A DNA stretch of 64,000 nucleotides from an uncultured Anaerolineaceae bacterium (GCA_964424115.1 CAYRHN010000017.1:16579-80578); one strand, 5' to 3'; shown: positions 28,398-62,611, counted from the stretch's first letter. Notes: generated by a model from the sequence alone, not told the origin. Translations and numbers: made by a program.

Positions 28398-28466
28398 ATT
28401 CGTCTACATTTCCCGTATGCATTAAACCGCTTTTTCGGTACAATAATCTCTATCCTTACATCCTTT

Positions 28467-28507
28467 AACACGGATAACACGGATCGAACGGATCGGCACG
28501 GATAATC
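28467..28507. repeat. CACGGAT-family intergenic repeat cluster
   Basis: aacacggataacacggatcgaacggatcggcacggataatc. Confidence 0.7.
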
Positions 28508-28587
28508 TCTGATCTATCCATGTTCGACCTGTGCTTTAAATATTTGTATTACCATTTCTTAAAAGTATCTTACCAAGGACGTAAAAC

Positions 28588-30402
28588 ATGGACCTTTTTG
28601 GCTCACTCTACCCCCCGGGAACGGTCATCTTTCGCGAAGGCGAAACGGGCGAGGCGATGTATATCATCCAATCCGGGGCGGTTAAGGTTTCCCATTTGCG
28701 CGGCGAGCGCGAGACCATCCTGGCGGTGCGCGAGAAGGGCGACTTCTTCGGGGAAATGGCCCTGTTTGGCGAAGAACTGCGTTCCGCCACGGTCACCGCC
28801 CTGCGCGAGACGCGCCTGGTCGCCATCACCCGCGCCTCGCTGCTGGAGAAAGTGCGCAGCGACCCGCAGGTGGCCCTGCACCTGCTCAAGGGGCTGATCC
28901 TGCGCATCCAGGAAGCCGACGAGAAGGTCAAGAAGGGCGTGGAAAACGACCCCCACGTGCGCGCCGCACTGGCAAGCGCCTCCGCGCCACAAACCGCTGC
29001 TGTGCCGCCCACCGCTGCGCCGGAAGCCCCCACGGCCGAAGTCTCCTCAGCCGACCTGGCGGACATCTGGAAAGTGCAGGAAGAGACCCGCTGGTACGAG
29101 GCCGGGGAAGAGATCTTCGCGGAAGGCCAACCCGGCGATGCCATGTACATCATCCTGGCAGGCCAGGTTGAGCTGCGCGTGCAGGGCGATCTCCTGCGCC
29201 AGGCCGGCCCCGGCGAATTCTTTGGCGAGTGGGCCCTGATCACCGATAATCCGCGCTTTGCCGCCGCCTCCGCCGCCGCGCGCACGCAACTGCTGCCGGT
29301 GGAGCGCGCCCGCTTCAGCGAGCAGATCACAGCCCGCCCGGAACTGGCCGTCTATATCCTGCAGGGCCTGGCCGCCCGCCTGCGCACCCTCAGCAGCGTG
29401 CTCTCCAACCCGCGCGCCGCCATTGCCGAGGTGCGCCGCAACTGGCAGCCGCTGATCCGCAAGCAGGCCCCGGTCAAGATCTCGATCGTCTCGCTGGCCA
29501 CCTGCGCCGGCTGCTCGGCCGTCCTGCTGGACGACCAGGTGTTGGCACAGGTGCTGGAAGCGGCCGAGATCGCCTACTGCCCGATGCTGATCGACCAGGA
29601 GCACATCCAGGAAGCCGACCTGGCCCTGGTGGACGGCGCGGTGCGCTTGAAGGACGACCTGGAAAAACTGGAGGAGGCGCGCGCCAAGAGCCGCTTCCTG
29701 GCCGCCTGGGGCACCTGCTCCTCCTTTGGCGGCATCCCGGCCGAGGCCAACCGCTTCGAAGTGGAAGACCTGGTGGCCGAGACCTTCGGCGAGACTGGCG
29801 ATATTTTCTCCTACTACCTGTCCGGCGCGCGCGGCGTGGAACGGTCCGCCTACCAGGAAAAAGGCATTTCCATGCTGCGCAAGGCCGGCAAGCTGGACGA
29901 TTACGTGCGCGTGGATTACTACGTGCCCGGCTGCCCGCCCTCCCCGGCCATGCTGCTCCAGCTGGTCGGCGAACTGACCGGCAGCCCGAACAGCCCGGGC
30001 AGCGGCAAATCGCAGGCGGTGGTATGCGCCCAATGCGACCGCAAACCCACCCGCGAGATGCCCACCTCCTTCACCGCCTACCCGCTGGGCAGCGAAGACC
30101 GCGCCGCCTGCTTCAACTCGCTGGGCGTCTTCTGCATGGGCTTCCTCACCCAGGGCGGCTGCGAGGCCGCCTGCACCCGGCGCGGACTGCCCTGCTGGGC
30201 CTGCCGCGGCCCGGCGCGCATTGCCCTTAAGAAGATGGCCGAGGGCGAAAGCTTTGAAGAAGTGGTGGTGCAGGGCATTGCCCGGCGCTGCAAGCTGGAG
30301 GAAGCCCAGGCCCGCGTGCTGGTCAAACAGGCCCGCCTGCAGGGGCTCGACCTCTTCCAATTTGAATCGTATCTGGTGAACAGCCTGGCGAGGGTCCGAT
30401 GA
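28588..30402 (+). CDS. fusion protein: two cyclic-nucleotide-binding domains plus a [NiFe]-hydrogenase small subunit (group-3-like, Oxidored_q6 core with extra FeS Cys motifs)
   Basis: The cNMP domains carry FGEMALFGEELRSATV and FGEWALITDNPRFAAASA. The small-subunit blocks are VSLATCAGCS, AWGTCSSFGGIP and YYVPGCPPSP. Cys-rich tail: CAQCDRKP, CFNSLGVFCMGFLTQGGCEAACTRRGLPCWACRGP. Confidence 0.8.
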   Translation: MDLFGSLYPPGTVIFREGETGEAMYIIQSGAVKVSHLRGERETILAVREKGDFFGEMALFGEELRSATVTALRETRLVAITRASLLEKVRSDPQVALHLLKGLILRIQEADEKVKKGVENDPHVRAALASASAPQTAAVPPTAAPEAPTAEVSSADLADIWKVQEETRWYEAGEEIFAEGQPGDAMYIILAGQVELRVQGDLLRQAGPGEFFGEWALITDNPRFAAASAAARTQLLPVERARFSEQITARPELAVYILQGLAARLRTLSSVLSNPRAAIAEVRRNWQPLIRKQAPVKISIVSLATCAGCSAVLLDDQVLAQVLEAAEIAYCPMLIDQEHIQEADLALVDGAVRLKDDLEKLEEARAKSRFLAAWGTCSSFGGIPAEANRFEVEDLVAETFGETGDIFSYYLSGARGVERSAYQEKGISMLRKAGKLDDYVRVDYYVPGCPPSPAMLLQLVGELTGSPNSPGSGKSQAVVCAQCDRKPTREMPTSFTAYPLGSEDRAACFNSLGVFCMGFLTQGGCEAACTRRGLPCWACRGPARIALKKMAEGESFEEVVVQGIARRCKLEEAQARVLVKQARLQGLDLFQFESYLVNSLARVR

Positions 30403-31703
30403 GCCAAATGATCCACCTCCAAAAAGCCACCCGCATCGAGGGGAACGCCGACATCCACATCCAGGTGGAGGACGGCCACGTGCAAAGCGCACGCTTCCAG
30501 GTGCAGGACTTCCGCGGTTTCGAAAAACTTGTCCAGGGCAAAGCCGTGGAAGCCGTCCCGCACATCGTCTCGCGCATCTGCGGGCTGTGCTGCACCACCC
30601 ACGAGGCGGCCAGCCTGCGCGCGGTAGAAGACGCCCTGGGCATCACCCCGCCCACCGCGGTCAGCAGCCTGCGCAGCATCGCCGTGCTGGGCGAATGGAT
30701 CGCCAGCCACGCCCTCAGCTATTTCTTCCTCGCCCGCCCAGATGCCTTCGGAGGGTCGCTGAACATCTTTGAACTGATGAAGGACGATCCCGAGGTGGCG
30801 CGCGAGGCCTTCTTCCTGCGCCGCTCCGGCAACCAGATCGTCGAGGCGGTTGCCAAACGGGCCGTGCATCCGGTGGCGCTGGGCGTGGCGCGTTTCCTCG
30901 TCCCGCTCACCCCGGCCGACCTGGCCGAGATCCGCCGCATCGCCTGCGAGGTGAAAGAGGCCGCCGGGCGGCTGATCGAACAGATCGGGCGGCAGCCTGC
31001 TCGCGAAAAACGCCTGCCCTTCCCCGCCGGGCGCGGGGTGAACTTCCTCTCCTACGACAGCCGCCCCGGACAGGAGCTCTTCCGCGTCTTCGACCGCTCC
31101 GGAGAGGTGACGGACGAGTTCAGCCGCGAGACCTTCACCGACCACGTGGCCGAGATGCGCGTGGACTGGTCGCTGGCCAAGTTCCCCTACCTGGCCCGCC
31201 TCGGCTTCCCGGAGGGCATCCTGCTGGTCGGGCCGCTCTCGCGCCTCTTCCAGCCCGGCGGTGTGCTGGACGACCCCGAGCTGGCCGCTTTCGCGCTGAC
31301 CGATTCGCTGCGCCGGACAGAAGCCCTCACCCTGGATGACCTGGATACCTGCCGCCTGCTGGAGATCTTCTGGGCGGCGCGGCAGATCCTGGCCTTGCTG
31401 GACGAGGTGGACCTGGCCCAGCTCGCCCCCGACCCGCTCGACCTTTCCGGCAGCGGCAAGGGCATCGGCGTGGTGGAGGCCCCGCGCGGGGTGCTGGTGC
31501 ACAGCTACCTGGTCAACCAGGGGCTGATGGAACGGATGAATCTGCTGGTGGCAACCCAGTTCAACAACGCCTATATCAATCTGGTGCTGCAAGACCAGGC
31601 CGAACGGCACGTGCAGGGCGGCGTACTCTCCGAGCAGGGCAAGGAGCTGATCGCGCGCTGCGTGCGCACCTTCGACCCCTGCCTGACCTGCGCCACGCAT
31701 TGA
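30399..31703 (+). CDS. [NiFe]-hydrogenase large subunit (short, group-3-like) ending exactly at the DPCxxCxxH motif
   Basis: The N-terminal ligand motif is RICGLCCTTH. The C-terminal DPCLTCATH is followed directly by the stop codon. There is an ATGA overlap with the small-subunit gene. Confidence 0.9.
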   Translation: MSQMIHLQKATRIEGNADIHIQVEDGHVQSARFQVQDFRGFEKLVQGKAVEAVPHIVSRICGLCCTTHEAASLRAVEDALGITPPTAVSSLRSIAVLGEWIASHALSYFFLARPDAFGGSLNIFELMKDDPEVAREAFFLRRSGNQIVEAVAKRAVHPVALGVARFLVPLTPADLAEIRRIACEVKEAAGRLIEQIGRQPAREKRLPFPAGRGVNFLSYDSRPGQELFRVFDRSGEVTDEFSRETFTDHVAEMRVDWSLAKFPYLARLGFPEGILLVGPLSRLFQPGGVLDDPELAAFALTDSLRRTEALTLDDLDTCRLLEIFWAARQILALLDEVDLAQLAPDPLDLSGSGKGIGVVEAPRGVLVHSYLVNQGLMERMNLLVATQFNNAYINLVLQDQAERHVQGGVLSEQGKELIARCVRTFDPCLTCATH

Positions 31704-31712
31704 CCTTTGTAG

Positions 31713-31950
31713 AAACCCTTTGAACACGGATTGAACAAATTTTTGCGTAGGGGCGACCGGCCGGTCGCCCCTACCGGCCGGCCCCTACGGTTTTTCCGCG
31801 GCTCTGCATCTCTGCGTGAGAAAAATCTTTGAACACGGATCGCGCGGATAACACGGATTTTCACGGATTGATTTTCACGTAGGTTGGGTTGAGCGCGACC
31901 AAGAACCCTCCATTTCAATCGATCGGCTAAGCAAAACCCAACAAGGATTC
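31713..31950. repeat. composite intergenic repeat, copy 1 (tttgaacacggat units, GTAGGGGCGACCGGCCGGTCGCCCCTAC palindrome, GTTGGGTT..AACCCAAC hairpin module)
   Basis: The modules are shared with 32497-32885 and 35083-35157. The palindrome at 31747-31774 is followed by a T-run and could also terminate the hydrogenase operon. Confidence 0.8.
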
Positions 31951-31997
31951 ACTTCGTATTGCTCCACCCCGAACCCGCCCTGCCTTTCTATAAGATC

Positions 31998-32387: not shown

Positions 32388-32496
32388 ATCCTCCTCCGAT
32401 CTGCCAGGGAAAGCAACCCACCACCAGTGTACTGCAGATCGGACGGGAAGTCAAAAATATTCCCGGCCGCCGGATGCCTCGCCCGCGACATCAAAA

Positions 32497-32885
32497 GAGA
32501 ACCACGAAACACACGAAAAGGGCGAAACATGCGAAACAAACCCTTTGAACGCGGACGCTGCGCGCGGATCACGCGGATTTTCACGGATTGATTTTCATGT
32601 AGGGGCGACCAGCCGGTCGCCCCTACGGGATTTTTTCTCCGCGTCTCCGGGGCGCGGCAAAAAAAGAGAACCACGAAACACACGAAATATACGAAACACG
32701 CGAACAAATCTTTGAACACGGATCACGCGGATTTTCATGGATAGTAGGCGTAGGTTGGGTTGAGCGCGGCCGAGAACCCTCCATTCCCATCAACCGGCCA
32801 AGCGAAACCCAACAAGGATTTACCATGAAACAAATGAAAAAAACTTTTCGTGTCTTTCGTCCTTTTCGTTTGTTTCGTGATCTTC
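32497..32885. repeat. composite intergenic repeat, copy 2 (ACGAAACACACGAA units, CACGGAT units, palindrome 32599-32626, GTTGGGTT hairpin module, inverted ACGAAA units)
   Basis: It aligns module by module with 31713-31950. gtaggttgggttgagcgcg(a/g)cc(a/g)agaaccctccatt.. is nearly identical in both copies. Confidence 0.8.
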
Positions 32886-35082: not shown

Positions 35083-35157
35083 CACCACGAAACACGCGAA
35101 AAAACCCTTTGAACACGGATCGCGCGGATGGCGCGGATTTTCACGGATTGATTTTCA
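35083..35157. repeat. CACGGAT/ACGAAACAC-family intergenic repeat
   Basis: caccacgaaacacgcgaaaaaaccctttgaacacggatcgcgcggatggcgcggattttcacggattgattttca. Confidence 0.8.
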
Positions 35158-36433: not shown

Positions 36434-39400
36434 TTAATTCGACCAATCAGGCCACCACTCAGAAGTAGCATTATTTGTAATCCTCGTTTGAGAAGTTCCA
36501 TCCTTCTTCATTTCGTAGACTTCCGAATTACCATCTCGATCCGAAGTGAAAACAATCCAATTTCCATCCGGCGACCACGATGGTGAGACATCATTGGATG
36601 TATTATTTGTGATTCTTTGTAACCCAGTTCCATCCACGTTAATCAAATAAATCTGAAATTTTCCATTAACTTTCATTGAGAAAGCAATCTGCTGTCCATT
36701 TGGCGACCAACCCATTGCCCCCCCAAATTCACCAACAAGCAATTGGTTACTTGTATTTGAATTCACATCATACAACATCAATGTTGTGCACGTAACGTAC
36801 GAAGCACAATAGATAATTTTGTCACCCAAAGGAGACCACTCGGAAAAATTGGCGTCGGATACAGAAGTTGGAAATTTATTGGATCCATTTTGATCCATGA
36901 TAACCAGGTCCCCACTGGTTCCGCCCAGATTAGCAATAAAAGCGATCTTTTGCCCATTAGGAGAGTAAGTTGGATTACTATCATCTCCTGAATAACCATT
37001 TGTTAAGTTTTCAATTTGAGTACCATCCGCTTTTACTTTGACTATATCCCAAACTGCGCATTCACCTGTCCCGCAAGATCGATACCCCGTTTTTGCCGAC
37101 AGAACTATAAATTGGTTGTCGGGAGACCAATGGGGATGAGCTTGCCCACTGTAAGTATAAAAAAGGCGCATCTGATTATTTCCATTAATATCCATTGTGT
37201 AAACGTTAGGATAGGAAACATAGGATATTTTTCCTTGTCCTCCTCCCGAGGGAGTGCTGGTTGGCGCTGGTGTAAAAGTCGGGGTTATCGTGGGTATCTG
37301 ATCAGTACTTCCCGAACCTCTCCCAATCAATGGCAAGAATATCGAAAATAAAGGGCGAGCGCCTATTCTTACACCGTTCACAATCGCGCCGCTGGAATTT
37401 CCTGCTCGATCAAACGCTGTCGCATAAAAGCTAGCTAAAGTTCCATCAGACAGCCCACTTCCATTCCAATTCAATCCCCACCCATTAGATCCATCTGCAT
37501 CAGTGCCAATCTCATGCCAATAATTTGCACCATCCTCATATCCAGCAAGGAATTTGACGCTAGTTACGCCCGAACCAGTATCTGATGCCGCGACAGCAAC
37601 AGACACAGTCTTGTCCTCATCAACTGATCCAGCAGCAGGCGATGTAAAAGATACAGAAGGAATTGAATTATCCAAGTTAACGGCAATCTCCCCGCCCGCA
37701 TTTGCTTTCGATCTCCCTGATTTATCGTACACATCTATTGCCAGTTTGATTTGCTGTCCGTTCAGCGCTGACCAATCCCAATTTTCAAATTGATAAGGAG
37801 GGGTATTATCGGTTCCCATATCCCGCCATTGACATCCTCCGACACAATGATAGACCTTAAACTTAACATAATTGACGCCACTCTTATCATCCCAAGCATC
37901 AGCCCAAATTGTTAGTGGGTTTTGATTTATGTAAGCATTATTGGCAGGGGCTGTAATTCTGCCATCCGGTTCTTCTAATTCCGGTTTGGGATATTCTTCT
38001 CCCCAAATATAGAGTTTTAGGTAGGCATTCCCTGTATTTTCGTAATATCTCACTTCAATCGTATGATACTTATTATCAAGCCACTTGTCTGTTTGTAAAC
38101 AACCACCACGATCCCACCATTCATCAATTTTCTTTTCCCCGTCAATTTCCAATACAACGCCGTCATCACTACATACACGGAAGAAATACTGACCACCATT
38201 AAAATATAGATTGCTGTAAATCTTAAAAGAGAATTGATCCGAGGGAAAACCTGAGTAAGGGGCTCCAGTGCCCCAATCTTTTTCAAACCCAATAAATGGG
38301 TAGGTCACATTGGTAACACCAGCAGGCCAATATTCATCGTGATTGACATAACCAGCCAACGATTTATTCATCCAGGCTTCTGCGTGCCATTGATTTACAG
38401 ATGGCAATCCTGCCCCTGAACAATCGTAATTTTTCGAGATATGCGGATTTGCATAATGCTCGCTGTATACCCATTTGTTACTTGAGTTATCCCATACCTC
38501 CATTCCAAGTTCAATATCCCCATTGGGAACACCAAAATTGCACATATCCCAATTTACACTGTAGGGTGAAGAACTATCCATTCCAATATCGTGCCACCCT
38601 CCGCTCCATTTAGCGCTGAAGCGCACTTCCCTAACCCCACTACCGCCAGAATTGTCTATGGCGTTTGCAGAGACATCGACCGTTCTGGATGTAATTGTTG
38701 CCCCGTTTGAAGGAGCAGTAAATGAACCCGATGGTGGAGTAGTATCCCCACCCACAGAACCAACTGTGAATGAGAAAGTTAGCAAGTCGCCGAATTTATT
38801 ACCAAACGAATCCGTCAATTGCCAATATGTATTATATGTGCCTGGTTGAGTGGGTAATTTCATCGAGATAAATATATTTGCTTCACTACCAGGGCTTACC
38901 CTTTGAGTCAGTTGATTGTCTCCATATACTTCAACGGTTGTGCCACTTGATTGGACGATTCCATATTCATACCCATATTCTGCCACACCATTATTCTTAA
39001 TTTTCCAACCTTTGGTTACCCACTGCCCTGGACCAAAGGTTAAATTTGATGAATAATTTAAGTGGGACAAGAATTGCGCACTATTGACCCCTGATGCAAT
39101 CGAGTTTTTATCGCCGGAATAATCCTCATCGCTTTCAGTTGGTGATTGAAAATCCTCCTCCTTCAATTTGGATGAATAGCCTGTTATCTCGATTCCGTAA
39201 ATAAATCCGCTTTTGATTTCCTCACCAGAATAGGTACGGTTTAATCCCTTTGGAGAGCCATCAGAATAATAATATAATTGTTTCCCAAATACATTAGGAT
39301 CAAATGCTAGAAACCTTGGCCCAAAGCTCCACACTTCCCCTTTTAATATAAGCCAATGCCCATCACGGGTTGGTGTGTATCTTCCATGCATCATGCCGTT

Positions 39401-39994
39401 GCTGGGGCGATCTTGATTATAAATCCAATAAGTATAAGCATCCACGTCACCGATTAATTTGTATGGTTTAATCTCGCCAACACATTTTCCTGGTTGCGGA
39501 CAGCTCGCTCCTCCAATAATATTCTGTTGGTAATAATCGTTCGAGGATGCGGAAATATTATTCCAATCCACTAAAACAATCACAATATTGTGCCGAACAG
39601 TGATCGCCCTCTCTAGTTCCAAGAAACTTGTTATTGCAGAATGTTGCACACCATATACATCAAGTGCATGTTCAAGTTCGGACGAATAAGTATTTCTATA
39701 CGCAGGAATACTCGCGGCAGCGCGAACTTCTTCTGGCCTAAGGGATGCATACTGACCAGACTTATATCTTACAGCCATCACCACGCTTGCTGGACCACAA
39801 TTATTAGCCTGACTCGTATCCCCATTCCCTTGTTTTTGGTAGATGGATGTAGGAACAGGAATATCATAACACCCCCCCGAAGAACTACACAAGAATTCAG
39901 TTTGTGCTTGGACTTGAAACGATAAATCCGCTAATAAAAGAATCCCAACAAAGAAGAAAATAACTGCGAGCAAGATGCCTTGGCTTTGTTTCAT
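36434..39994 (-). CDS. large secreted multidomain protein: peptidase C39-like N-domain, NBR1-FW-like domain, three Ig-like modules, a PA14 domain and a C-terminal TolB-type (PD40) beta-propeller
   Basis: It has a signal/TM segment (ILLAVIFFFVGILLLA) and the Cys-peptidase-like block NNCGPASVVMAVRY. The FW-like block is GQWVTKGWKIKNNG. PA14-like block: FSFKIYSNLYFNGGQYFFRVCSDDGVVLEIDG. Repeated Ig-like units are ..DNSGGSGVREVRF.., ..DDKSGVNYVKF.. and ..SDTGSGVTSVKF... PD40 repeats include SPDGNWIVFTSDRDGNSEVY. Confidence 0.8.
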   Translation of the reverse strand: MKQSQGILLAVIFFFVGILLLADLSFQVQAQTEFLCSSSGGCYDIPVPTSIYQKQGNGDTSQANNCGPASVVMAVRYKSGQYASLRPEEVRAAASIPAYRNTYSSELEHALDVYGVQHSAITSFLELERAITVRHNIVIVLVDWNNISASSNDYYQQNIIGGASCPQPGKCVGEIKPYKLIGDVDAYTYWIYNQDRPSNGMMHGRYTPTRDGHWLILKGEVWSFGPRFLAFDPNVFGKQLYYYSDGSPKGLNRTYSGEEIKSGFIYGIEITGYSSKLKEEDFQSPTESDEDYSGDKNSIASGVNSAQFLSHLNYSSNLTFGPGQWVTKGWKIKNNGVAEYGYEYGIVQSSGTTVEVYGDNQLTQRVSPGSEANIFISMKLPTQPGTYNTYWQLTDSFGNKFGDLLTFSFTVGSVGGDTTPPSGSFTAPSNGATITSRTVDVSANAIDNSGGSGVREVRFSAKWSGGWHDIGMDSSSPYSVNWDMCNFGVPNGDIELGMEVWDNSSNKWVYSEHYANPHISKNYDCSGAGLPSVNQWHAEAWMNKSLAGYVNHDEYWPAGVTNVTYPFIGFEKDWGTGAPYSGFPSDQFSFKIYSNLYFNGGQYFFRVCSDDGVVLEIDGEKKIDEWWDRGGCLQTDKWLDNKYHTIEVRYYENTGNAYLKLYIWGEEYPKPELEEPDGRITAPANNAYINQNPLTIWADAWDDKSGVNYVKFKVYHCVGGCQWRDMGTDNTPPYQFENWDWSALNGQQIKLAIDVYDKSGRSKANAGGEIAVNLDNSIPSVSFTSPAAGSVDEDKTVSVAVAASDTGSGVTSVKFLAGYEDGANYWHEIGTDADGSNGWGLNWNGSGLSDGTLASFYATAFDRAGNSSGAIVNGVRIGARPLFSIFLPLIGRGSGSTDQIPTITPTFTPAPTSTPSGGGQGKISYVSYPNVYTMDINGNNQMRLFYTYSGQAHPHWSPDNQFIVLSAKTGYRSCGTGECAVWDIVKVKADGTQIENLTNGYSGDDSNPTYSPNGQKIAFIANLGGTSGDLVIMDQNGSNKFPTSVSDANFSEWSPLGDKIIYCASYVTCTTLMLYDVNSNTSNQLLVGEFGGAMGWSPNGQQIAFSMKVNGKFQIYLINVDGTGLQRITNNTSNDVSPSWSPDGNWIVFTSDRDGNSEVYEMKKDGTSQTRITNNATSEWWPDWSN

Positions 39995-42900: not shown

Positions 42901-44043
42901 TCATTTCCTTGGTTTCAGCAACAAAACCAATTCAACCGACTTGTTTCTAGCGTTTCGAATTTCATTGTTCCCACCCAATGTGCTAAACTGACCTTCAATC
43001 GTATTTCTATCTTCCACAAAAAACCATTCGGAAGCGATCGTTTTTATGTAATCCCCCGACAATCCATTGCTCGAATTACCAGATGGAAATGTAAAAATGA
43101 TGGTTGAACCTTGCCCTGCAATATTCTTAAGGAGTGATTCAAGAGCGGTCTTAGCTTGACCTACATTACTGAATTCTGATTGTGGCCTGTCCTCTAAGGG
43201 TGGATATCTTCCAACTCCAAAAACCGAGATCGATTTGTGGCATTGTGCCATTGTTTCAAGTACATGGTAAAAGCGGCTGTATTGAACAGAAGAATAAGGA
43301 GGATCGATAAAAACCAAGTCTTTTGAGGTCAATTGAGGAGTCACATTTTCCGCATTATCTGTTATTACCGAGCCCTTTACTTTAGCGAATTTTTGACACA
43401 AGAATTTCAAATTTGTTTTACAATGTTCCAAAGGGTCTTGTTGCCAAGACTCAAGTATGAATTTTCCAGCTCTTTCAGTCGGTTGAAAAGGCTGAGCTGT
43501 ATGTCCCGGTGATGCTACACATTCACTTGCTGCGGAGATACATGCTGCAAGGCATACAACCTTCTCTTCATACACATTCGGAAGATTATCCAATAAATAG
43601 TCGAATGTTAGCGCCTGTGTTGGGCTAAAGTAATGCCCTCCATATGCATTCCAAATTGGTCCAATATCCGATTTGTTCGCACATAGTTCTCTCGCTTCCT
43701 GAACATAAGAACCCACGTTTAAATTTTGGTTTGAGAGATGTCTAGCTTTCCTCCACAAGTAAGACCTGTTCCGCTCTTTTTGAGCCTTTTCCACCCAATT
43801 AATCGCAATTTTCTTCGCGTCAAGCAACTTCGTGCGCGATATAACGGCTTCCACAAGAATGGTTGAATATCTTTGTAAATCAACTGCAATTACAGGTCTT
43901 TCAATCCTTTCGGCGACAAACCACGAGACAAAACCACCCCCTGCAAAAAGATCTACAAATCTATCAAACAAAATAGATTGTTCTAATAGTAAATCCCCCA
44001 ATCCATTCTTAAGCATGGATCGCTTGGAACCCATATATTTCAT
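42901..44043 (-). CDS. N6-adenine DNA methyltransferase, Dam/D12 class, with a C-terminal extension
   Basis: KYMGSKRSML matches the Dam-type Y-x-G-S/N-K block. FAGGGFV is the SAM-binding FxGxG motif. FIDPPYSSVQYSRFYH carries the catalytic DPPY. Its ATG overlaps the stop of the upstream gene (ATGA at 44040-44043). Confidence 0.85.
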   Translation of the reverse strand: MKYMGSKRSMLKNGLGDLLLEQSILFDRFVDLFAGGGFVSWFVAERIERPVIAVDLQRYSTILVEAVISRTKLLDAKKIAINWVEKAQKERNRSYLWRKARHLSNQNLNVGSYVQEARELCANKSDIGPIWNAYGGHYFSPTQALTFDYLLDNLPNVYEEKVVCLAACISAASECVASPGHTAQPFQPTERAGKFILESWQQDPLEHCKTNLKFLCQKFAKVKGSVITDNAENVTPQLTSKDLVFIDPPYSSVQYSRFYHVLETMAQCHKSISVFGVGRYPPLEDRPQSEFSNVGQAKTALESLLKNIAGQGSTIIFTFPSGNSSNGLSGDYIKTIASEWFFVEDRNTIEGQFSTLGGNNEIRNARNKSVELVLLLKPRK

Positions 44044-45386
44044 GGGATCAATCCCCATAAACCGATTCTCTCACAACCTTCAAGAATTCTGAGTGAAGTA
44101 TTTTGGGTTTTAATTAGCCCAGAATAACTTGGTCGGCTCACTCTAGACATCCACGCATCCATCTTATTTATTGCATTATCAACTTCATCCCATAGAGATA
44201 CTATGTCGCCAGAATTTGTGCCAGGCTTATTTCTTTCATTCCAGAGCCCTTTTTCAATTCCCAGATTGTTCCACCAAAATTGAAGATCTGATGATGAATA
44301 TGAGGAATTGTTGATCAACTGAAAACAAACACCTGTAGCTATTCTCAATAGTAATGTTGCTCTTGAAATGACTTCTAAATGATGCTGGGGATCAGTAAAC
44401 GATCTTCTTTTTTCAGCTTCAGTTAGTATAAATGGATCCGGATAATTATTGTTTACAAAGAAATCTTGCCAACTATTTTTCATCAAATTAGTGAAGGAAA
44501 ATTTGTTTAGCATCCTTGAAATACGATCATCATACGAAAGTTGTACGCCATTAACATCTACCAATGGGATATCTAGATTAATCTTCTTTAAACTTTTCCT
44601 TATCAAGTATCGATCTAGTTGATTAAATCTGGTTGCGTGAAAAGGATTTAACGTACTCCAAAAATTGGAAATAAAACGACCACTATCTAACGCGGTAACA
44701 TTAGCTAGCTGAGTAATGTGGGAAGGTCTGTAACTAACAATATTCCTGGCATCTCTATCGGTGATAAGTATATTCAAGTCTAAACCACAAGTTGATAACC
44801 AGTAAGAGGCCAAGGATGATAAAATCCCGCTTGCTGAATATTCTGTTAACCAATCTTTTAATGGATAATGGTCGATTTTAATAATTTCACCGATAATATT
44901 TGCAGCTTGCGGAGTAGCAGCCCAATTTTCCAAAGCTAACCATGTAAATGGATGTGTACTAACACCTTGTAATTCTTGCGCATGCTGATTTTGATCTATT
45001 ACAACATGAGAATTATTAAAAACGCCTATCCCCCCCGAAGCAAGCAATGACATAGCTGCTCTTAATTCAGCATAATATGCTAAGTGCCGAGCTGTATTTG
45101 GATCACCTCGCATGATGCAATGCAATGCTCTCCCCAAGAAGCTCCATCCATCCATACAATGGGTGGGTATGGATGCTGCAATATAATTACAAAGGTCTAA
45201 ATCAATAATACAGCTATTTTTAAAATGGTCTTCAATCGTTTTGGTTGTGTTTACTAAATAAGCATTAGTATGCAACCATTCTCCATAAGAAAAATTGGAG
45301 TATAAAGATTGAAAAATATTAGCAATGGCCGAACTCGAAGCCATTGATAATTTGTTTTTCTGTTGGAGGGTTAATGTCGGCGGCAT
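44040..45386 (-). CDS. protein of unknown function, translationally coupled between the DGQHR and methyltransferase genes
   Basis: 448 aa with coherent AT-rich codon usage. Its start lies 3 nt after the DGQHR stop, and its stop overlaps the MTase ATG. No catalytic motif was recognised. Confidence 0.65.
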   Translation of the reverse strand: MPPTLTLQQKNKLSMASSSAIANIFQSLYSNFSYGEWLHTNAYLVNTTKTIEDHFKNSCIIDLDLCNYIAASIPTHCMDGWSFLGRALHCIMRGDPNTARHLAYYAELRAAMSLLASGGIGVFNNSHVVIDQNQHAQELQGVSTHPFTWLALENWAATPQAANIIGEIIKIDHYPLKDWLTEYSASGILSSLASYWLSTCGLDLNILITDRDARNIVSYRPSHITQLANVTALDSGRFISNFWSTLNPFHATRFNQLDRYLIRKSLKKINLDIPLVDVNGVQLSYDDRISRMLNKFSFTNLMKNSWQDFFVNNNYPDPFILTEAEKRRSFTDPQHHLEVISRATLLLRIATGVCFQLINNSSYSSSDLQFWWNNLGIEKGLWNERNKPGTNSGDIVSLWDEVDNAINKMDAWMSRVSRPSYSGLIKTQNTSLRILEGCERIGLWGLIP

Positions 45387-47098: not shown

Positions 47099-48673
47099 AT
47101 GAATATGCCCAACTCCACCCATCTCGATCTACCGACCCTCGAACAATGGCTTTGGGACGCCGCCTGCCAGATCCACGGGCCGGTGGACGCGCCCAAGTAT
47201 AAGGATTACATCCTGCCTTTGATCTTCCTCAAGCGCCTCTCGGACGTCTTCGAGGATGAGGTGAATCGCCTGGCGGAGAGCTACGGCAGCCGCGAGGCAG
47301 CTGCATCCCTGGTGGAAGTGGACCATTCCCTAGTGCGCTTCTATTTGCCGCCCGCGGCGCGTTGGGACCGGATTGAGAAAGTAACCACCGGGCTGGGCCA
47401 GGCCATCACTGACGCGATGCGCGCCATCACCCGTGAGAACCCGCGCCTGTCAGGGGTGATTGATGTCACTGACTTTAACGCCACCACAGCCGGAATGCGC
47501 ATCATCGACGATGAGCATATCTATGCTCTGGTACAGGTACTGCGCCGCCATCGCCTGGGGCTGAAGGATGTGGAGCCGGATATTCTTGGCCGCGCCTATG
47601 AATACCTGCTGCGCAAATTTGCCGAGGGCCAGGGCCAATCTGCCGGGGAGTTCTATACTCCGCGCATGGTAGGCGTGTTGATGGCGCGCTTGCTCGATCC
47701 CCAACCCGGCATGACCAGTTACGACCCGGCCTGCGGTTCGTTTGGTTTGCAGATCAAGCTGCACCTGCGCCTGCTCGAAACCCACGGCGAGGAACTGGAA
47801 GGAGGCCATCGCCGCCTGCCGCCGAACGTGGCGCCCTTGCGCCTGTACGGGCAAGAGATCAACGCCACCACCTTTGCCATGGCGCGCATGAATGCCTTCA
47901 TCCACGATCTGGATACCCAGATTGCCCCCGACGACACCATGCGCCGCCCGGCTTTCTTGACCCCTTCCGGCGGGTTGCAGACCTTTGACCTGATCACCGC
48001 CAACCCGATGTGGAACCAGAAATTCGGCATGGATGTCTACGAAAACGACCCCTATGGGCGTTTTGCTTACGGAATTCCGCCCAGCGCGAGCGCGGATTGG
48101 GGCTGGGTGCAGCACATGGCGGCTTCGCTCTCCCCGCGCGGGCGCATGGCGGTAGTGCTGGATACCGGCGCGGTTTCGCGCGGCAGCGGCAACCAGGGCT
48201 CCAGCCGCGAGCGCGATATTCGCCAGAAGTTCGTTGAGGCCGATTTGGTAGAGGCAGTGATCCTGCTGCCAGAAAATTTATTCTACAATACTCCCTCGCA
48301 AGGAATCATTCTCATACTAAACAAAACTAAACCCCACCCTGGTGAAATTCTTCTGATAAACGCTAGTCACTCGTTTTTCAAGGGTCGACCTAAGAATGAA
48401 ATGAATGAAGAACATATAGCACAAATAACTGATGGTTATACTGCCTGGCAATTTAGAGAAGGGGCCTCAGCAGTCATCACATTGGGCGAGGCAGCACGCA
48501 AAGATTTTAACCTCAGCCCTAGCCGTTATGTGTCACAAAATGGGGATAATAAAGTCTTACCTTTGGATGAGGCTGTAGTACTATTACAAGAAACCGAAGA
48601 GGAAAGATCAGTAGTTCAAAATGAGTTAAATAAAATTCTTCAATCCCTTGGTTTTCAGAATAGGCAAGATTGA
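47099..48673 (+). CDS. hsdM: Type I restriction-modification system methyltransferase subunit HsdM
   Basis: The N-terminal HsdM_N block is LWDAACQIHGPVDAPKYKDYILPLIFLKRLSD. The SAM motif is YDPACGS and the catalytic motif is ANPMWNQKF (NPPF/W type). The gene overlaps hsdS. Confidence 0.9.
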   Translation: MNMPNSTHLDLPTLEQWLWDAACQIHGPVDAPKYKDYILPLIFLKRLSDVFEDEVNRLAESYGSREAAASLVEVDHSLVRFYLPPAARWDRIEKVTTGLGQAITDAMRAITRENPRLSGVIDVTDFNATTAGMRIIDDEHIYALVQVLRRHRLGLKDVEPDILGRAYEYLLRKFAEGQGQSAGEFYTPRMVGVLMARLLDPQPGMTSYDPACGSFGLQIKLHLRLLETHGEELEGGHRRLPPNVAPLRLYGQEINATTFAMARMNAFIHDLDTQIAPDDTMRRPAFLTPSGGLQTFDLITANPMWNQKFGMDVYENDPYGRFAYGIPPSASADWGWVQHMAASLSPRGRMAVVLDTGAVSRGSGNQGSSRERDIRQKFVEADLVEAVILLPENLFYNTPSQGIILILNKTKPHPGEILLINASHSFFKGRPKNEMNEEHIAQITDGYTAWQFREGASAVITLGEAARKDFNLSPSRYVSQNGDNKVLPLDEAVVLLQETEEERSVVQNELNKILQSLGFQNRQD

Positions 48674-48675
48674 TT

Positions 48676-49962
48676 ATGGTTGCACTGCAAAGTACCCAAT
48701 CTGCACTTAAGTTATCTAATCTTCCAAATAATTTCCCTTCTGGTTGGCGATGGCTAAAACTTGGCGATTTTGCTAATACAAAAAGTGGCGGTACTCCAAG
48801 AAGAGAAGTCCCAAATTTCTATGAGGGAATTATCCCTTGGATAAAATCAGGCGAACTTAAAGATACTACAATTACTCGATCCGAAGAACATATAAATCAA
48901 GAGGCGATAGATCATAGCAGCGCACAAATTTTCCCCAAGGGCACACTTGTAGTAGCTTTGTATGGAGCTACAGCTGGAAGAGTAGGGCTTTTGGAAATAG
49001 CCTCTGCAACAAATCAGGCTGTTTGTGCAGTATTTCCAGATAACAGCGCTATTCCTGAATATCTCTTTTATGCACTTATATACAGAAGGAACGATTTATT
49101 GAAAGAGCGATATGGGGGTGCTCAACCAAATATAAGTCAAACTGTATTACGTTCTTTTTATTTACCCATCCCCCCTCTGCCCGAACAACGCGCCATTGCC
49201 CATGTGCTGACCACCATTCGCCAGGCAATTGAGGCCAGTGAGCGTGTGATCGAGGCAACGCGTCAGCTTAAAAAGTCGACGATGAAGCATTTGTTCACCT
49301 ACGGCCCAGTGCCAGTGGACGAGGTGGATCGCGTACCGTTGAAAGAGACGGAGATCGGATTAGTGCCAGAGGGATGGAGCATTAGCCGTTTGGGTGATCT
49401 TATTGAAAAGCCAGAATATGGATATACAGCAAGCTCTTCATTAAAGGAAGTGGGGCCAAAATTTATTCGCATTACCGATATAAGTGATGAAGGAAGAGTA
49501 AATTGGAATTTAGTTCCGTATTGTGCTTGTTCAGAAAAAGAATTACCTAAATACATTGTAAAAAAGGGGGATATCTTGATCGCACGTATAGGAGCCACAA
49601 CAGGTAAAAGTTTTAGGGTTGAAGATTGTCCTCAAGCAATCTTTGCCTCTTATTTGATACGTTTACGTCCAAATATTGAATTGTTAGAAGATCGCTATTT
49701 GTACCAGTTTACGACAACAGACATTTATTGGAAGCAAATCAATTCAAGCAAAGGTGGGCGACTTAAAGGTGGTGTAAATATTCCCAACCTGCAAAACCTA
49801 TTAATCCCGTGTCCTAATAAAGAGGAACAAAACAATATTCAAGAAATTCTTGGTTCTATCGATGTCAAAATTATCGTTGAGACTAACCGCAAGAACGCTT
49901 TAGAATCACTATTCCAGAGCCTGCTGCATCACTTGATGACCGGAAAAGTGCGGGTGGGATAA
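48676..49962 (+). CDS. hsdS: Type I R-M specificity subunit HsdS (two target-recognition domains)
   Basis: The central conserved region is LPIPPLPEQRAIAHVLTTIRQAIEA and the C-terminal conserved region is LFQSLLHHLMTGKVRV. The ORF track starts at a TTG at 48670. Confidence 0.9.
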   Translation: MVALQSTQSALKLSNLPNNFPSGWRWLKLGDFANTKSGGTPRREVPNFYEGIIPWIKSGELKDTTITRSEEHINQEAIDHSSAQIFPKGTLVVALYGATAGRVGLLEIASATNQAVCAVFPDNSAIPEYLFYALIYRRNDLLKERYGGAQPNISQTVLRSFYLPIPPLPEQRAIAHVLTTIRQAIEASERVIEATRQLKKSTMKHLFTYGPVPVDEVDRVPLKETEIGLVPEGWSISRLGDLIEKPEYGYTASSSLKEVGPKFIRITDISDEGRVNWNLVPYCACSEKELPKYIVKKGDILIARIGATTGKSFRVEDCPQAIFASYLIRLRPNIELLEDRYLYQFTTTDIYWKQINSSKGGRLKGGVNIPNLQNLLIPCPNKEEQNNIQEILGSIDVKIIVETNRKNALESLFQSLLHHLMTGKVRVG

Positions 49963-53041: not shown

Positions 53042-55873
53042 ATGTCTGCGAATAATCCATCCAACCCATCTGGTGCCTCGAAACCTGTAGGACGGCCATC
53101 GCTTATTATCGGACTTGGCGGTACTGGACAATATGCAATTCAAAAATTTCTAAATGAAATCGGCAAAATAAACCAAAATGAAGGCATTAATCGCGACATT
53201 AAACCTTCAAACCTTCTAGTAATCGACACCGACGAAAGGAGCATCAGCGATTGGTTGCAGGAGTCAATCGAATCATCTCCAAAAAAACGCCGCGAAAATT
53301 ACCAAAAACCTAAAGCACGTATGACTATTCAAACGGCGCTCCAGGAATACCCCCTGCTGGTAGTTTTGGGAGACCCAGGTTCTGGCAAAACCACTTTGCT
53401 AAAATACATAACCCTTTGTTATGCCGAAAACAAGCTGGATCAATTAGGCGCTCAACGCAGGCGCCTGCCAATTTTTGTGCGATTGTATGATTACATTTCA
53501 CGCCGCTCCCAACAACAAAATAATTACTCCTTGGTAGATTATCTTTATACCCAGGCGCATGATAAATATATTCTCAACTTGCCACCGGGTTTTTTTGAAG
53601 ACGCGTTAACCAAAGGCGAATGTTGTCTATGCTTGGACGGGTTGGATGAGTTGGGTTCGCTGGACTTACGTCATGAAATGGTTGAAAGCATTCAAGCCCT
53701 GGCAACACGTTTTCCACGCAATCAATTTATCATTACCTCGCGTATTGTGGGCTACAGCGAAGCACCATTAAACAGCAAGATATTTACCCATTTAACCGTA
53801 TTGCCGTTTAGCGATGAGGATATTCAAAATTTTGTTCGAAAATGGTACTGGGCCCGCGAACCCGACCATGCGCAAGCTGAAGAATCTGCGCAATCGCTGA
53901 TCAAAACCATTCTAGAAGAACCGCGCATCAAGTTGCTGGCCACCAATCCATTGATGTTAACCATCATTGCCCTGGTACATCGAATTGAAGCCCAGCTCCC
54001 CAATGAACGAGTTAAGTTGTATGAAAAATGTGTTACTACTTTGGTGGATACCTGGTACCAAGCCAAAGGCATCAAATACCAAGATCAGCAGCGCCCCGCT
54101 TATATTTTCCGATATCGTTTCTTGGAATGGTTGGCTTATTGGATGCATTCGCAAGTAACCAGTTCGCGCCAAGCATATGAAATTCAAGAACATGAATTGG
54201 AAGACCTATTGGCAGGCTTTTTATTGGCTGAAACCACCTTGAATATCGGTAAGGAAAAAGCGCGCCAGGAAGTGCGCCATTTTGTGGAAACAGTTAAATC
54301 GCGCACCGGACTGTTGATCGAACGCGGCGAAAAGCTATACTCTTTCACCCATCTGACCTTTCAAGAATATATGGCGGCAGGTGAGATCGTAAAAAGATTT
54401 GATGAGTATTTTGAGAAAGAAAAGTGCTGGGCCGAGTTGGAGCCGCACCTGCATGAAGCTCATTGGCGTGAAGTAATCTTATTAGTATTAGGGCGATTAA
54501 ACACCCGAACAACGCTCACTACCTTTTTGGTAACAAAAATTCTTGATTATCCTGAACCAGAGGAAAAACTGCGCTATGCCAACTTGTTGTTGGCAGCCCG
54601 GATACTGGCAGACCACATAGCTGTAGATTTTGCCTTGAAAGAACGGATCTGGCATGAATTGGTTTTGTTAATGCGCATTAGTCCGGCAATTGCTGATCAG
54701 ATAATAACTCTTCTAATGCAATTTAAGGGCGAAGACGAAATCAAAACCATTATCTCCTTATTGGTTAAGTCCCTTCAGGATAATTCGATTTCTTCCAGTA
54801 TCCATTATCAAATATTATTTGCTTTCTATCAAAATAATATAACTGATCCACGTTTAAAACCGGTCCTGCAATCCATCATTTCCGAACCATCCCGTGAACC
54901 AGCCCTTCGAGCAGTTGCTGCATATATTTGGGGCGTCAAATATGATCTAACTGTAGCTCAACAGGAATTGACCGCAATTATTAAAGATCAGACTCTTCCC
55001 ATGGATGTATGCGGGATTGGTCTGGAATTTTTGGCCCAGTTAGGGAATCCAAGCCGATTGGTAATCGTCGAACTGGAAAAAATCTTGCGCAATCCGGTCT
55101 ATTCCAGCCGTATTCGATGCGCAATAGCAGTAGCCCTGATCCAATTAGGTCAGTTAAGTACTGGTTTGAAAGCATTGCAAAAACTTGCCATCACGCGTGC
55201 ACAGCCCACACCGGTCCGTGAACTGGCAATTAAGGCAATGGGAGCATACGGTAAGAACGATGTCGAGACCGGGCGGTCTCTTCTTTTGATGGCGGGAAAT
55301 AAACAAACTGAACTTGATTTGCGTATCGCCTGCTGTGAGGCGCTAGCCACGAATAATCAAACTGAAGCAGTGGTTTTAGTTTTGGACGGGATAACCAAGA
55401 AACAAGGCATAAAACCTGCTCAAATCATGCGGTTGGTTAGTATATTTGAAAGTCTTAAAGATACACAACGGACAATTAAGTATGTCTCGGAGCTAATGGA
55501 GGATAAGAAACTTCCGATCGAAACTCGCTGTTGGGCTGTACAGGTGCTGGTTAGACTAAACGAAACCGATCGGGCAGTTATTATCTTGAAGGCGCTTGAA
55601 AAGAAAGTTTTTCTTAGAGCGCAAGAAAAAATAGCCATTGCCAAGGCGTATATATCCATGAGCTATTTCGATCAAGCTTATTCGATTCTCTATAGTGTTG
55701 CCAATAACTCCTCCGCCAAGGATAAAGAACGCCTGGATGCAGTAGAATTACTTACCCGCATTGGCAGAGACGAGGGCATGGAAACGGTGCGGGCCGAAAT
55801 CTTTACCCGCTATAACCATTTGCGGTCAGGCGATAACGCAGAAACGCTCACCATAGGACAGGAAACCGAATGA
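53042..55873 (+). CDS. NACHT-domain STAND NTPase with C-terminal HEAT/ARM-like repeats (bNACHT/Avs-like)
   Basis: Walker A is LLVVLGDPGSGKTTLL and Walker B is CCLCLDGLDEL. NACHT downstream blocks are ITSR and LATNPLMLTIIAL. The C-terminal roughly 450 aa are helical repeats. Confidence 0.85.
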   Translation: MSANNPSNPSGASKPVGRPSLIIGLGGTGQYAIQKFLNEIGKINQNEGINRDIKPSNLLVIDTDERSISDWLQESIESSPKKRRENYQKPKARMTIQTALQEYPLLVVLGDPGSGKTTLLKYITLCYAENKLDQLGAQRRRLPIFVRLYDYISRRSQQQNNYSLVDYLYTQAHDKYILNLPPGFFEDALTKGECCLCLDGLDELGSLDLRHEMVESIQALATRFPRNQFIITSRIVGYSEAPLNSKIFTHLTVLPFSDEDIQNFVRKWYWAREPDHAQAEESAQSLIKTILEEPRIKLLATNPLMLTIIALVHRIEAQLPNERVKLYEKCVTTLVDTWYQAKGIKYQDQQRPAYIFRYRFLEWLAYWMHSQVTSSRQAYEIQEHELEDLLAGFLLAETTLNIGKEKARQEVRHFVETVKSRTGLLIERGEKLYSFTHLTFQEYMAAGEIVKRFDEYFEKEKCWAELEPHLHEAHWREVILLVLGRLNTRTTLTTFLVTKILDYPEPEEKLRYANLLLAARILADHIAVDFALKERIWHELVLLMRISPAIADQIITLLMQFKGEDEIKTIISLLVKSLQDNSISSSIHYQILFAFYQNNITDPRLKPVLQSIISEPSREPALRAVAAYIWGVKYDLTVAQQELTAIIKDQTLPMDVCGIGLEFLAQLGNPSRLVIVELEKILRNPVYSSRIRCAIAVALIQLGQLSTGLKALQKLAITRAQPTPVRELAIKAMGAYGKNDVETGRSLLLMAGNKQTELDLRIACCEALATNNQTEAVVLVLDGITKKQGIKPAQIMRLVSIFESLKDTQRTIKYVSELMEDKKLPIETRCWAVQVLVRLNETDRAVIILKALEKKVFLRAQEKIAIAKAYISMSYFDQAYSILYSVANNSSAKDKERLDAVELLTRIGRDEGMETVRAEIFTRYNHLRSGDNAETLTIGQETE

Positions 55874-61390: not shown

Positions 61391-62611
61391 TTAACTACCA
61401 TGCAACCAGGCCTTTCTTAAAATCTCCATAGTGATACAGTTAAAATTACCGTTAAAGGCCTGATCACAAGCATCCCTCAGAAGCGTCATCATGGGACGTA
61501 AAGTTCCTCCAGTTACCTTCTCAATGAATTCTGCAGGCCCTTCCTCTAGCCGATTATTCTTGATAATGGTGCGATCTGAAAGATGCGAAGATCCCGTAAG
61601 TGGTAAAAACAGTTCCACATAATCTAAAAAAGCATCTAGACCATCTCCTTCAAATGGATGTAAATCAATTTGAGTAGGCCAACGCCCGGCTATCTCAGAA
61701 TCTCCATGCGTGAATTTCTCAGGATCACAAGAAGCAACTGCAATGCACAGATTGGGGAGATGATTGGTCAGCTCTAATATTTTTCGTCGAACACTATGTT
61801 TAACCATGTGCTCAATTTCATCAATGATCAGCATTTGCACCCTACACTTTTTCATGTAAGTCAGCGCCTTTCTGAACAGACTATCCTCTTTATCTGACAC
61901 AAAAAAAGTTTTGCCGCACGATTGAATGATCTTCTGATAGATCTCTTTTGCATTTCGCGGTTCTATAGGAGAGTCAATTTTGATAACCGGGATAACGTTA
62001 TATTCGAAATCAACATATGCGGGGGTCTGGTTTACTCGCCAATTAAAAAAGGTGGTTTTTCCCATTCCCGAAAGCCCTCCCAACATAAAATTTCTGGAGT
62101 GACCTAAATATTTATCCCGAAGAAGAAAATCGATCTTCTTGTTGATACGTTGTAATTCCGGCGTCATCACAAAATATAACTGGTTCATCCAAAGTCTTTT
62201 TTCCCGAATCGTCAAGCCCCTATACTGATCCCTCATTTCCACAAAATAGTTCTCATTAATCACCTGTGGGTCTATGACAATCGGAATGGGATTCTTGAAT
62301 ACATGGATCTGCTCTTGATAGGAGACCAGTTGCGCTATTAATTGAAAATCTTGCGGAGTTTCCTTCAATCTAAAAATGCGATTATCCAGTTCTTGGTTTT
62401 GTGCTTGCCAATTCGATTCCCAGACTTGAAGTTCCTCTAAACGTTTACGCACATCAATTACTCCCTTTTCGAGACGGTAGTATTGCCTTATATTCTCAGA
62501 AGATCCTACAACAGGTTCGTCCACATCAACTCCAATTTCAGTCTTCCTCAACAATTTGTTGTAGATAATTCTTAAGCCTTGAAACGGTAGGATTGATTGA
62601 CTCCATAGCAT
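61391..62611 (-). CDS. tniB: TniB/TnsC-like AAA+ transposition ATPase
   Basis: Walker A is GGLSGMGKTTFF and Walker B is MLIIDEIEHM. The annotated start overlaps the transposase gene by 74 nt, so the true start is uncertain. Confidence 0.75.
   Translation of the reverse strand: MLWSQSILPFQGLRIIYNKLLRKTEIGVDVDEPVVGSSENIRQYYRLEKGVIDVRKRLEELQVWESNWQAQNQELDNRIFRLKETPQDFQLIAQLVSYQEQIHVFKNPIPIVIDPQVINENYFVEMRDQYRGLTIREKRLWMNQLYFVMTPELQRINKKIDFLLRDKYLGHSRNFMLGGLSGMGKTTFFNWRVNQTPAYVDFEYNVIPVIKIDSPIEPRNAKEIYQKIIQSCGKTFFVSDKEDSLFRKALTYMKKCRVQMLIIDEIEHMVKHSVRRKILELTNHLPNLCIAVASCDPEKFTHGDSEIAGRWPTQIDLHPFEGDGLDAFLDYVELFLPLTGSSHLSDRTIIKNNRLEEGPAEFIEKVTGGTLRPMMTLLRDACDQAFNGNFNCITMEILRKAWLHGS

Follow-up and report, generated by a model that had tools for sequence, protein, structure and literature searches.

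Tandem cyclic-nucleotide-binding domains fused to the small subunit of a divergent group-3 [NiFe]-hydrogenase in Anaerolineaceae and other bacteria

A stretch of 64,000 nucleotides from an uncultured Anaerolineaceae bacterium (GCA_964424115.1, CAYRHN010000017.1:16579-80578; in the following called the window, with positions counted from its first letter) contains a gene pair for a [NiFe]-hydrogenase, the small subunit of which begins with two cyclic-nucleotide (cNMP)-binding domains. The small-subunit gene (28588-30402, + strand) encodes a protein of 604 amino acids, in which tandem cyclic-nucleotide-binding (CNB) domains are fused to an MvhG-like [NiFe] small subunit with three clusters, and the large-subunit gene (30399-31703, + strand) encodes a [NiFe]-hydrogenase large subunit of 434 amino acids. 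The two open reading frames (ORFs) share 4 bp, ATGA, as is typical of translational coupling. A preliminary description of this DNA had proposed a stand-alone hydrogenase pair with two cNMP domains on the small subunit, and the pair is real, as both ORFs, the Pfam domains, and the motifs are present: the small subunit contains PF00027 (cNMP_binding) twice (E 2.4e-43) and PF01058, and the large subunit PF00374 (E 8e-28). The nearest named relatives of the pair come from Anaerolineaceae and Chloroflexi.

The first CNB domain comprises residues 8-118 (28609-28941, + strand) and carries the phosphate-binding cassette (PBC) FFGEMALFGEELRSATV at residues 53-69 (28744-28794, + strand). Its residues G55, E56, and R65 are found in 113/113 homologues and A67 and T68 are nearly invariant, which bears out the canonical cassette that had been recognized in this domain. 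The second CNB domain (residues 166-275; 29083-29412, + strand), with the cassette FFGEWALITDNPRFAAAS at residues 211-228 (29218-29271, + strand), had been regarded as degenerate, which is not the case: G213 is present in 113/113, E214 in 108/113, and R223 in 100/113 homologues, and only F224 and A226 are unusual. With G55, E56, R65, and A67 in the first and G213, E214, R223, and A225 in the second domain, both CNB domains of the window copy have the Gly-Glu and Arg-x-Ala cassette of the ligand-competent PF00027 type, and from their sequence they look like a functional cyclic-nucleotide link. The linker between them (28942-29082, + strand) is Ala/Pro-rich and poorly conserved, and disorder is predicted for it, with a predicted local distance difference test score (pLDDT) below 50 at residues 130-152. 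In an AlphaFold model that was made with a 113-sequence alignment, both CNB domains reach a pLDDT of ~90, and the best structural matches of the modelled N-terminal half are the cyclic AMP (cAMP)- or cyclic GMP (cGMP)-bound tandem CNB domains of the regulatory subunit of protein kinase A (PKA-R) and of protein kinase G (PKG), those of the C-terminal half being MvhG.

The hydrogenase core of the small subunit follows at residues 296-604 (29473-30399, + strand), and its closest NCBIfam and PDB matches are VhuG/MvhG of the F420-non-reducing hydrogenases (residues 296-548). It contains the motifs CAGC (306-309), GTCSSFGG (375-382), and GCPP (448-451), which supply the ligands C306, C309, C377, and C449 of the proximal cluster, and eight further cysteines at positions 480, 483, 508, 516, 525, 529, 536, and 539 that would hold two more [4Fe-4S] clusters. 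All twelve cluster cysteines are invariant in the 113 homologues, and the complete group-3-like small subunit with these three motifs and two additional cysteine clusters is thereby confirmed. A conserved linker, VRxxWxPLLxK, stops about 10 residues ahead of the CxxC of the proximal cluster. The small subunit has no twin-arginine (RR/Tat) signal, and its N-terminus is formed by a CNB domain; the hydrogenase is therefore cytoplasmic.

In the large subunit, the catalytic set is intact, with all four Ni-Fe cysteines, the L0 glutamate, and the arginine of the PRG motif. The L1 motif RICGLCCTTH is found at residues 59-68 (30573-30602, + strand), EAPRG at residues 360-364 (31476-31490, + strand), and the L2 motif DPCLTCATH at residues 426-434 (31674-31700, + strand). 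The L0 motif is the variant RIEGNA (30432-30449, + strand), in which the glutamate is kept and the histidine is replaced by asparagine; a literature search on this motif found nothing on the function of the L0 histidine. The protein stops at H434 of DPCLTCATH, directly followed by TGA, exactly as had been claimed, so that a C-terminal extension is absent, and the best 120 large-subunit relatives all (120/120) have a length of ~433-434 amino acids and end exactly at the histidine of DPCxxCATH. Family signatures are RIEGNA instead of RxEGH in L0, CGLC in L1, and the missing C-terminal extension. As the large subunit is made without this extension, it would need no maturation endopeptidase.

Large subunits without C-terminal extension are also made by the H2-sensing hydrogenases of groups 2b and 2c, which signal via a histidine kinase or a GGDEF partner, and the missing peptide had accordingly been taken as a hint at a sensor. 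This hint is weak, because 16/137 other group-3 representatives, most of them 3b-like, also end at the histidine, and the trait is thus not diagnostic of a sensor.

The fusion is not a singular case. A search for other small subunits with cNMP domains resulted in at least 310 clusters from four or more phyla, the best 120 of which, with identities down to 42%, all contain PF00027 and PF01058 over the full length. In a collection of species-representative genomes, full-length fusions are found in Chloroflexota/Anaerolineae, Nitrospirota (Thermodesulfovibrionales), Desulfobacterota, and Acidobacteriota, and the Desulfobacterota with the fusion include the cultured Desulfosarcina widdelii PP31. 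The order of the genes, with the large-subunit gene directly after the small-subunit gene, is kept in 26/26 family loci that were examined. In a scan of metagenomes for loci of the Chloroflexota type, only four further fusions were found amid generic CNB proteins that match KGDFFGEM, and two of these four were informative. Judged from the sequences, the fusion is ancient and conserved across phyla, and the window pair is genuine and intact, and belongs to a hydrogenase family that is widespread but uncharacterised. Some family members appear broken: in a metagenome-assembled genome (MAG) of an Acidobacteriota bacterium, two overlapping ORFs take the place of the fusion gene (L029, 9914-11832), and in a Nitrospirota MAG the small-subunit ORF is truncated (L028, 9986-11371). 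Frameshifts or errors in the assembly are the probable cause of these breaks, which affect at least two MAG copies.

The large subunit belongs to group 3, as it has the L1 motif RxCGxCxxxH, the L2 motif DPCxxCxxH, and the catalytic glutamate (L0) and arginine (PRG), and its nearest relatives are all 3b-, 3c-, or 3d-like, which does not agree with a placement in group 2. In an exhaustive search of 50%-identity representatives with the large subunit, family members scored 383-457 bits and all others at most 263 bits with at most 37% identity. A maximum-likelihood tree of 174 large subunits, which included MvhA/VhuA from the PDB (3c), HoxH (3d), and bifurcating HydABCSL, places the large subunits of the family on a long branch, in a clade of their own with 100% support, which is separate from the 3c/3d clade and also from a clade with sampled members that score best against the 3b models ShyA/HydA. 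The phylogeny thus separates the enzyme from groups 3b, 3c, and 3d. The 3b-like representatives form a separate 55-row clade, and no genes for 3b-type beta or gamma subunits are present within 10 kb of the window pair. Also group 3d does not apply: the small subunit has three clusters instead of only the proximal one of the short HoxY, a diaphorase gene is absent nearby, and HoxH (5xf9) is found in another clade.

More has to be said about group 3c, the Mvh/Vhu hydrogenases (MvhAGD; PDB 5odc, 9sw2, 9sfi), which the family resembles in several respects: the core of the small subunit, with its three Fe-S clusters, is nearest to MvhG/VhuG, the best score of the large subunit is that against VhuA, and one relative adjoins an Hdr/MvhD-like operon. 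However, the large subunit is found outside the 63-row clade that holds MvhA and VhuA of the PDB, and although VhuA is the best-scoring NCBIfam model, its score is 183 bits at a cutoff of 800, and none of the NCBIfam equivalogs came near its cutoff with the large subunit. An association with MvhD and HdrABC is absent within 10 kb of the window pair, and among about 26 relatives only the locus L003 adjoins such genes. The family further differs from group 3c by its lack of a C-terminal extension, which has 25-26 residues in 3c-like control loci, by the exchange of the L0 histidine for asparagine, and by the N-terminal CNB tandem.

The nearest outgroup of the family is a rare clade (P0246, P0247, P0391) with RIEGNA, a C-terminal extension of 13-22 residues, and an unfused small subunit. 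At L088 (5496-9374), the nearest non-fused outgroup pair, with RIEGNA and an extension of 17 residues, is preceded on the same strand by genes for a receiver-domain protein, an unannotated protein of 117 amino acids, and a HATPase_c_2 kinase, a context that hints at a link of the wider clade to signalling.

West-Roberts et al. (bioRxiv 10.1101/2021.08.23.457424) provisionally proposed a 'group 3e' for a divergent Anaerolineae clade near 3c and 3d that comes with a small subunit only, without accessory or electron-transfer genes, and that was called unique to Anaerolineae. The family agrees with this description, as it is a divergent group-3 clade near 3c/3d, occurs in Anaerolineae, and consists of stand-alone pairs of small and large subunit, and by this description its large-subunit clade is probably the provisional group 3e. 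It differs in being present also in Nitrospirota, Desulfobacterota, and Acidobacteriota, and in carrying cNMP domains; the text of that paper (bioRxiv 10.1101/2021.08.23.457424) mentions neither cNMP domains nor a missing C-terminal extension or RIEGNA. The preliminary description had spoken of an undescribed hydrogenase class, and this holds only in part: the clade has probably already been proposed, but the fusion is described in no paper that was found. Literature searches gave no publication on a cNMP-domain fusion to a hydrogenase small subunit or on its link to cNMP signalling genes.

Genes for hyp proteins, proteases, diaphorases, Hdr/MvhD, or cytochromes had been reported to be missing beside the pair, and within 10 kb on either side none of them is present in the window; neither is there an adjacent histidine kinase/response regulator or GGDEF partner within this distance. 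In the relatives, a different kind of gene recurs. Hidden Markov models for the class III cyclase domain, the PDEase_II-like hydrolase, and the CNB domain were built from Pfam-verified neighbours, and all loci were scanned with them, cyclases, class-II phosphodiesterase-like genes, and other cNMP-binding effectors being counted as cNMP genes. Such genes are found within 10 kb of the pair at 15/19 fused loci outside Chloroflexota, but only at 1/58 non-fused Mvh-like control loci (Fisher p = 1.7e-11). Additional metagenome loci have three cyclases (L092) or a phosphodiesterase-like gene (L093). The neighbouring cyclases in the relatives are linked to CHASE2, REC, or FHA domains, with REC- or FHA-cyclases directly downstream of the pair or a divergent CHASE2-cyclase, and in some relatives a PDEase_II-like gene follows the pair at 28-31 bp or a gene for a CNB-Ser/Thr kinase at 22 bp.

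The cNMP islands around the fused hydrogenase in Nitrospirota and Desulfobacterota (L012, 13350-15077; L013/L017, 13208-15475; L011, 13201-14601; L020, 5366-6406; L026, 1-912) encode as further CNB effectors GNAT-CNB, a SulP-STAS-CNB transporter, CNB-Ser/Thr kinase, CNB-PilZ, and CNB-GGDEF proteins. As the arrangements vary among the subclades, the association with cNMP genes arose or was kept several times, and with the varied CNB effectors and cyclases beside the pair the hydrogenase seems to be one of several cNMP effectors. A coupling to cyclic-nucleotide signalling, which had been suggested from the window alone, is thus supported outside Chloroflexota by the cyclases, phosphodiesterase-like genes, and cNMP effectors near the pair.

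Taking the domains and their neighbours together, the enzyme, a cytosolic heterodimer from a separate lineage of group-3 [NiFe]-hydrogenases, may be gated by cAMP or cGMP, a proposal to which we give an even chance. In this mechanism, cAMP or cGMP that is formed by class III cyclases would bind to the CNB tandem, and the signal would run via the conserved linker VRxxWxPLLxK to the hydrogenase core, where it would relieve or impose a block on the exit of electrons or on the interaction of the subunits or with a partner, and H2 oxidation or evolution would thereby be switched by the second messenger. There are precedents for such a control in the mycobacterial GNAT-CNB acetyltransferase (Pat) and in PKA/PKG, where canonical CNB domains, single or in tandem, allosterically switch the catalytic module to which they are joined; in L012, a GNAT-CNB gene with the architecture of Pat adjoins the fused hydrogenase, and PKA-R and PKG are the best fold matches of the N-terminal half. 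The effector differs, as it is here the electron-transfer subunit of a metalloenzyme. With the pattern of PKA/PKG and the GNAT-CNB acetyltransferases, an allosteric control of the attached enzyme by the CNB tandem is the most economical reading.

Several points weigh against a gating by cyclic nucleotides. The inter-domain arrangement in the model is unreliable, with a predicted template modelling score (pTM) of 0.52, and the coupling route is therefore a guess. In the second cassette of the window copy, F224 and A226 are atypical, the family consensus being R-T-A-S-A-T. The enrichment test ignores phylogeny, and its controls were loci of other phyla. In Chloroflexota, including the window, no cyclase, phosphodiesterase-like gene, or other CNB gene is found within 10 kb of the pair (0/6 loci), and the whole of the 64-kb window yielded no cyclase, phosphodiesterase-like gene, or further CNB gene. 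Expression evidence does not come from public data either: nine public runs hold the locus, and of these the runs X1-X4, X8, and X9 are labelled 'METAGENOMIC RNA-Seq', but they behave like DNA, with flat depth over genes and spacers and contigs of 35-39 kb. They were thus rejected as transcriptomes; X8 and X5 are duplicate filings of one data set.

The electrons need a partner, as the three-cluster relay together with the intact catalytic apparatus argues for a real electron transfer. In Chloroflexota, a redox-partner gene is not encoded near the pair, and a clustering of all neighbours of 27 loci gave no conserved redox partner. A gene for a Pyr_redox_2-Fer4_20-FlpD protein occurs 7-8 kb upstream of the pair in four related Nitrospirota, with housekeeping genes in between, and was judged to be there by synteny. 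In the metagenomic relative L003 (567-9870), the fused pair is found 131 bp downstream of a co-directional Hdr/Flx-like operon that encodes an HdrA-like fusion of 1475 amino acids, FlpD (MvhD-like), ferredoxins, HdrC, HdrB (CCG), and a FAD_binding_6/NAD_binding_1 protein. This operon makes an acceptor of the Hdr/Flx type possible, but it is a single case. Possible partners are thus a soluble ferredoxin or flavodoxin, or a complex of the Hdr/Flx-MvhD type like that beside the pair in L003.

Instead of being gated, the hydrogenase might serve as an H2 sensor or signal integrator that reports H2 or the redox state by contacts to neighbouring cyclases, phosphodiesterases, and kinases, and in that case the CNB domains would provide a cNMP feedback. 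Like the sensors of groups 2b and 2c, it has a large subunit without C-terminal extension and no adjoining maturation or partner genes, a conserved redox partner is lacking, its L0 motif is altered (RIEGNA versus RxEGH), signalling genes are the main recurrent neighbours of the relatives' pairs, and the receiver domain and the HATPase_c_2 kinase at L088 are in line with this idea. On the other hand, the large subunit is that of a group 3 and not of a group 2 enzyme, the small subunit retains a full MvhG-like three-cluster relay, and metabolic electron flow is suggested by the L003 pair, which directly follows an Hdr/Flx-MvhD operon. The loss of the extension is not specific to sensors, as seen in the 3b-like representatives, and the fused domains are ligand-input domains, with no output domain attached. 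For these reasons – unspecific extension loss, CNB domains as input modules, and no output domain – a sensor is ranked below gating and is considered unlikely. The preliminary description had left it open whether the enzyme is a gated hydrogenase or an H2 sensor; the canonical, conserved cassettes and the cNMP neighbours favour gating, and the sensor is weakened because the loss of the extension is unspecific.

The CNB domains might also bind a ligand that is not a cyclic nucleotide, such as NAD(P)H as proposed for HoxI, and the activity would then be tuned to the pyridine-nucleotide pool. HoxI of the soluble hydrogenase of Cupriavidus necator and the CNB-like genes in group 3b/HydABCSL operons are known cNMP-fold accessory subunits of group-3 hydrogenases that are thought not to act via cAMP, and they are a precedent for this idea. 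They also weaken the novelty of any link between the cNMP fold and group 3, although they are of a non-canonical type. In both cases a cytosolic group-3 hydrogenase is physically linked with a module of the cNMP fold, but HoxI and the 3b proteins are separate small proteins with a non-canonical pocket, which are thought to bind NADPH or another ligand, whereas the window small subunit has two fused canonical CNB domains. The pockets were compared using an accessory protein encoded at the control locus L041 (4799-5314, - strand), a CNB-fold protein of 171 amino acids with a GWSW...PPY pocket, which appears to head a minus-strand operon that ends with the gene of a HydSL-like [NiFe] large subunit (the CNB protein and the large subunit were checked). 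Where the fused domains have GEMA and RSAT, this protein aligns GWSW and NLDV, and both the Glu and the Arg of the cNMP cassette are missing from it. In the fused domains, the canonical cassette is preserved, with G55, E56, and R65 in all 113 homologues, and their genes are associated with cyclases and cAMP-phosphodiesterase-like genes, not with diaphorases, which makes a different ligand very unlikely.

It is similarly improbable that the hydrogenase is constitutive and that the CNB tandem is a scaffold for oligomerisation or partner docking without nucleotide switching: the lack of cNMP genes near the pair in Chloroflexota and the somewhat atypical second cassette of the window copy would fit, but the ligand-contacting Gly-Glu and Arg are strictly conserved down to 42% identity, which is hard to explain otherwise and makes ligand binding likelier.

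Known levels of hydrogenase control are transcription and maturation, to which an NADPH-binding accessory subunit is added in one case. To our knowledge, there is no description of a classical second messenger that controls a hydrogenase post-translationally, and we know of no hydrogenase that has been reported as a cNMP effector; literature searches found none. The enzyme could thus be, at a probability that we judge to be evenly balanced, the first hydrogenase that is directly wired to a cyclic-nucleotide second messenger, in that the cNMP switches H2 turnover or in that the redox state of the Fe-S clusters alters cNMP binding and H2 thereby feeds into the cNMP network. It would in such a case act beside the CNB-kinases, CNB-transporters, CNB-acetyltransferases, and CNB-GGDEF proteins that are encoded nearby in Nitrospirota and Desulfobacterota. 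If true, a gating by cyclic nucleotides would allow anaerobes to switch H2 production or consumption quickly, and it would connect H2 cycling with cNMP signalling, of which little is understood in these phyla. The lineages with the fusion are abundant in sludge, sediment, and groundwater (Anaerolineae, Thermodesulfovibrionales, and Desulfobacterales), the stand-alone 'group 3e' enzymes gain a testable function, and with Desulfosarcina widdelii PP31 a cultured host for tests is available.

As to the surroundings of the pair in the window, the genes within 10 kb upstream encode an ABC-F ATPase, a HEAT-repeat protein, a PMT_2 glycosyltransferase, a TM198-like protein, and a radical-SAM protein, and those within 10 kb downstream a Zn-ribbon protein, a membrane alpha/beta hydrolase, an exonuclease III, and a tricorn-like protein. 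The flanking repeats and terminator-like hairpins that had been noted are real. The gap of 190 nt that precedes the small-subunit gene contains an array of (A/C)ACGGAT heptamer repeats (28450-28512), a copy of a dispersed local repeat that could be a promoter/regulatory or a repetitive extragenic palindromic (REP)-like element. A perfect, GC-rich palindrome of 28 nt (31747-31774), located 44 nt past the stop codon of the large-subunit gene and followed by a T5 tract, is probably the terminator of the operon; a second copy of it is found at 32599-32626.

Arrays of the heptamers CACGGAT/CGCGGAT, the 28-nt palindrome, and a 75-nt unit are the parts of a composite intergenic repeat that occurs at 28450-28512, 31714-31952, 32484-32823, and 35095-35157, within the window around the hydrogenase locus only. 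The two copies of the 75-nt unit (31878-31952 and 32749-32823) are 88% identical. The repeat-rich flanks had no Rfam match to known RNA elements, and the composite repeat could be REP-like or similar to a miniature inverted-repeat transposable element (MITE), or a regulatory site.

At about 36 kb, the G+C content drops from ~62% to 38-49%, and the low-GC stretch extends over 36100-64000. A chimeric assembly was considered for this junction and rejected, because independent contigs cross it at even depth. The low-GC stretch resembles a defence or mobile island that has been acquired, and it contains the gene of a tricorn/PD40 protein of 1186 amino acids (36434-39994), a D12-class methyltransferase gene (42901-44058), the type I restriction-modification genes HsdM (47099-48673), HsdS (48670-49962), and HsdR (55870-58788) with a NACHT NTPase gene (53042-55873) between HsdS and HsdR, and the gene of a TniB-like ATPase (61391-62611).

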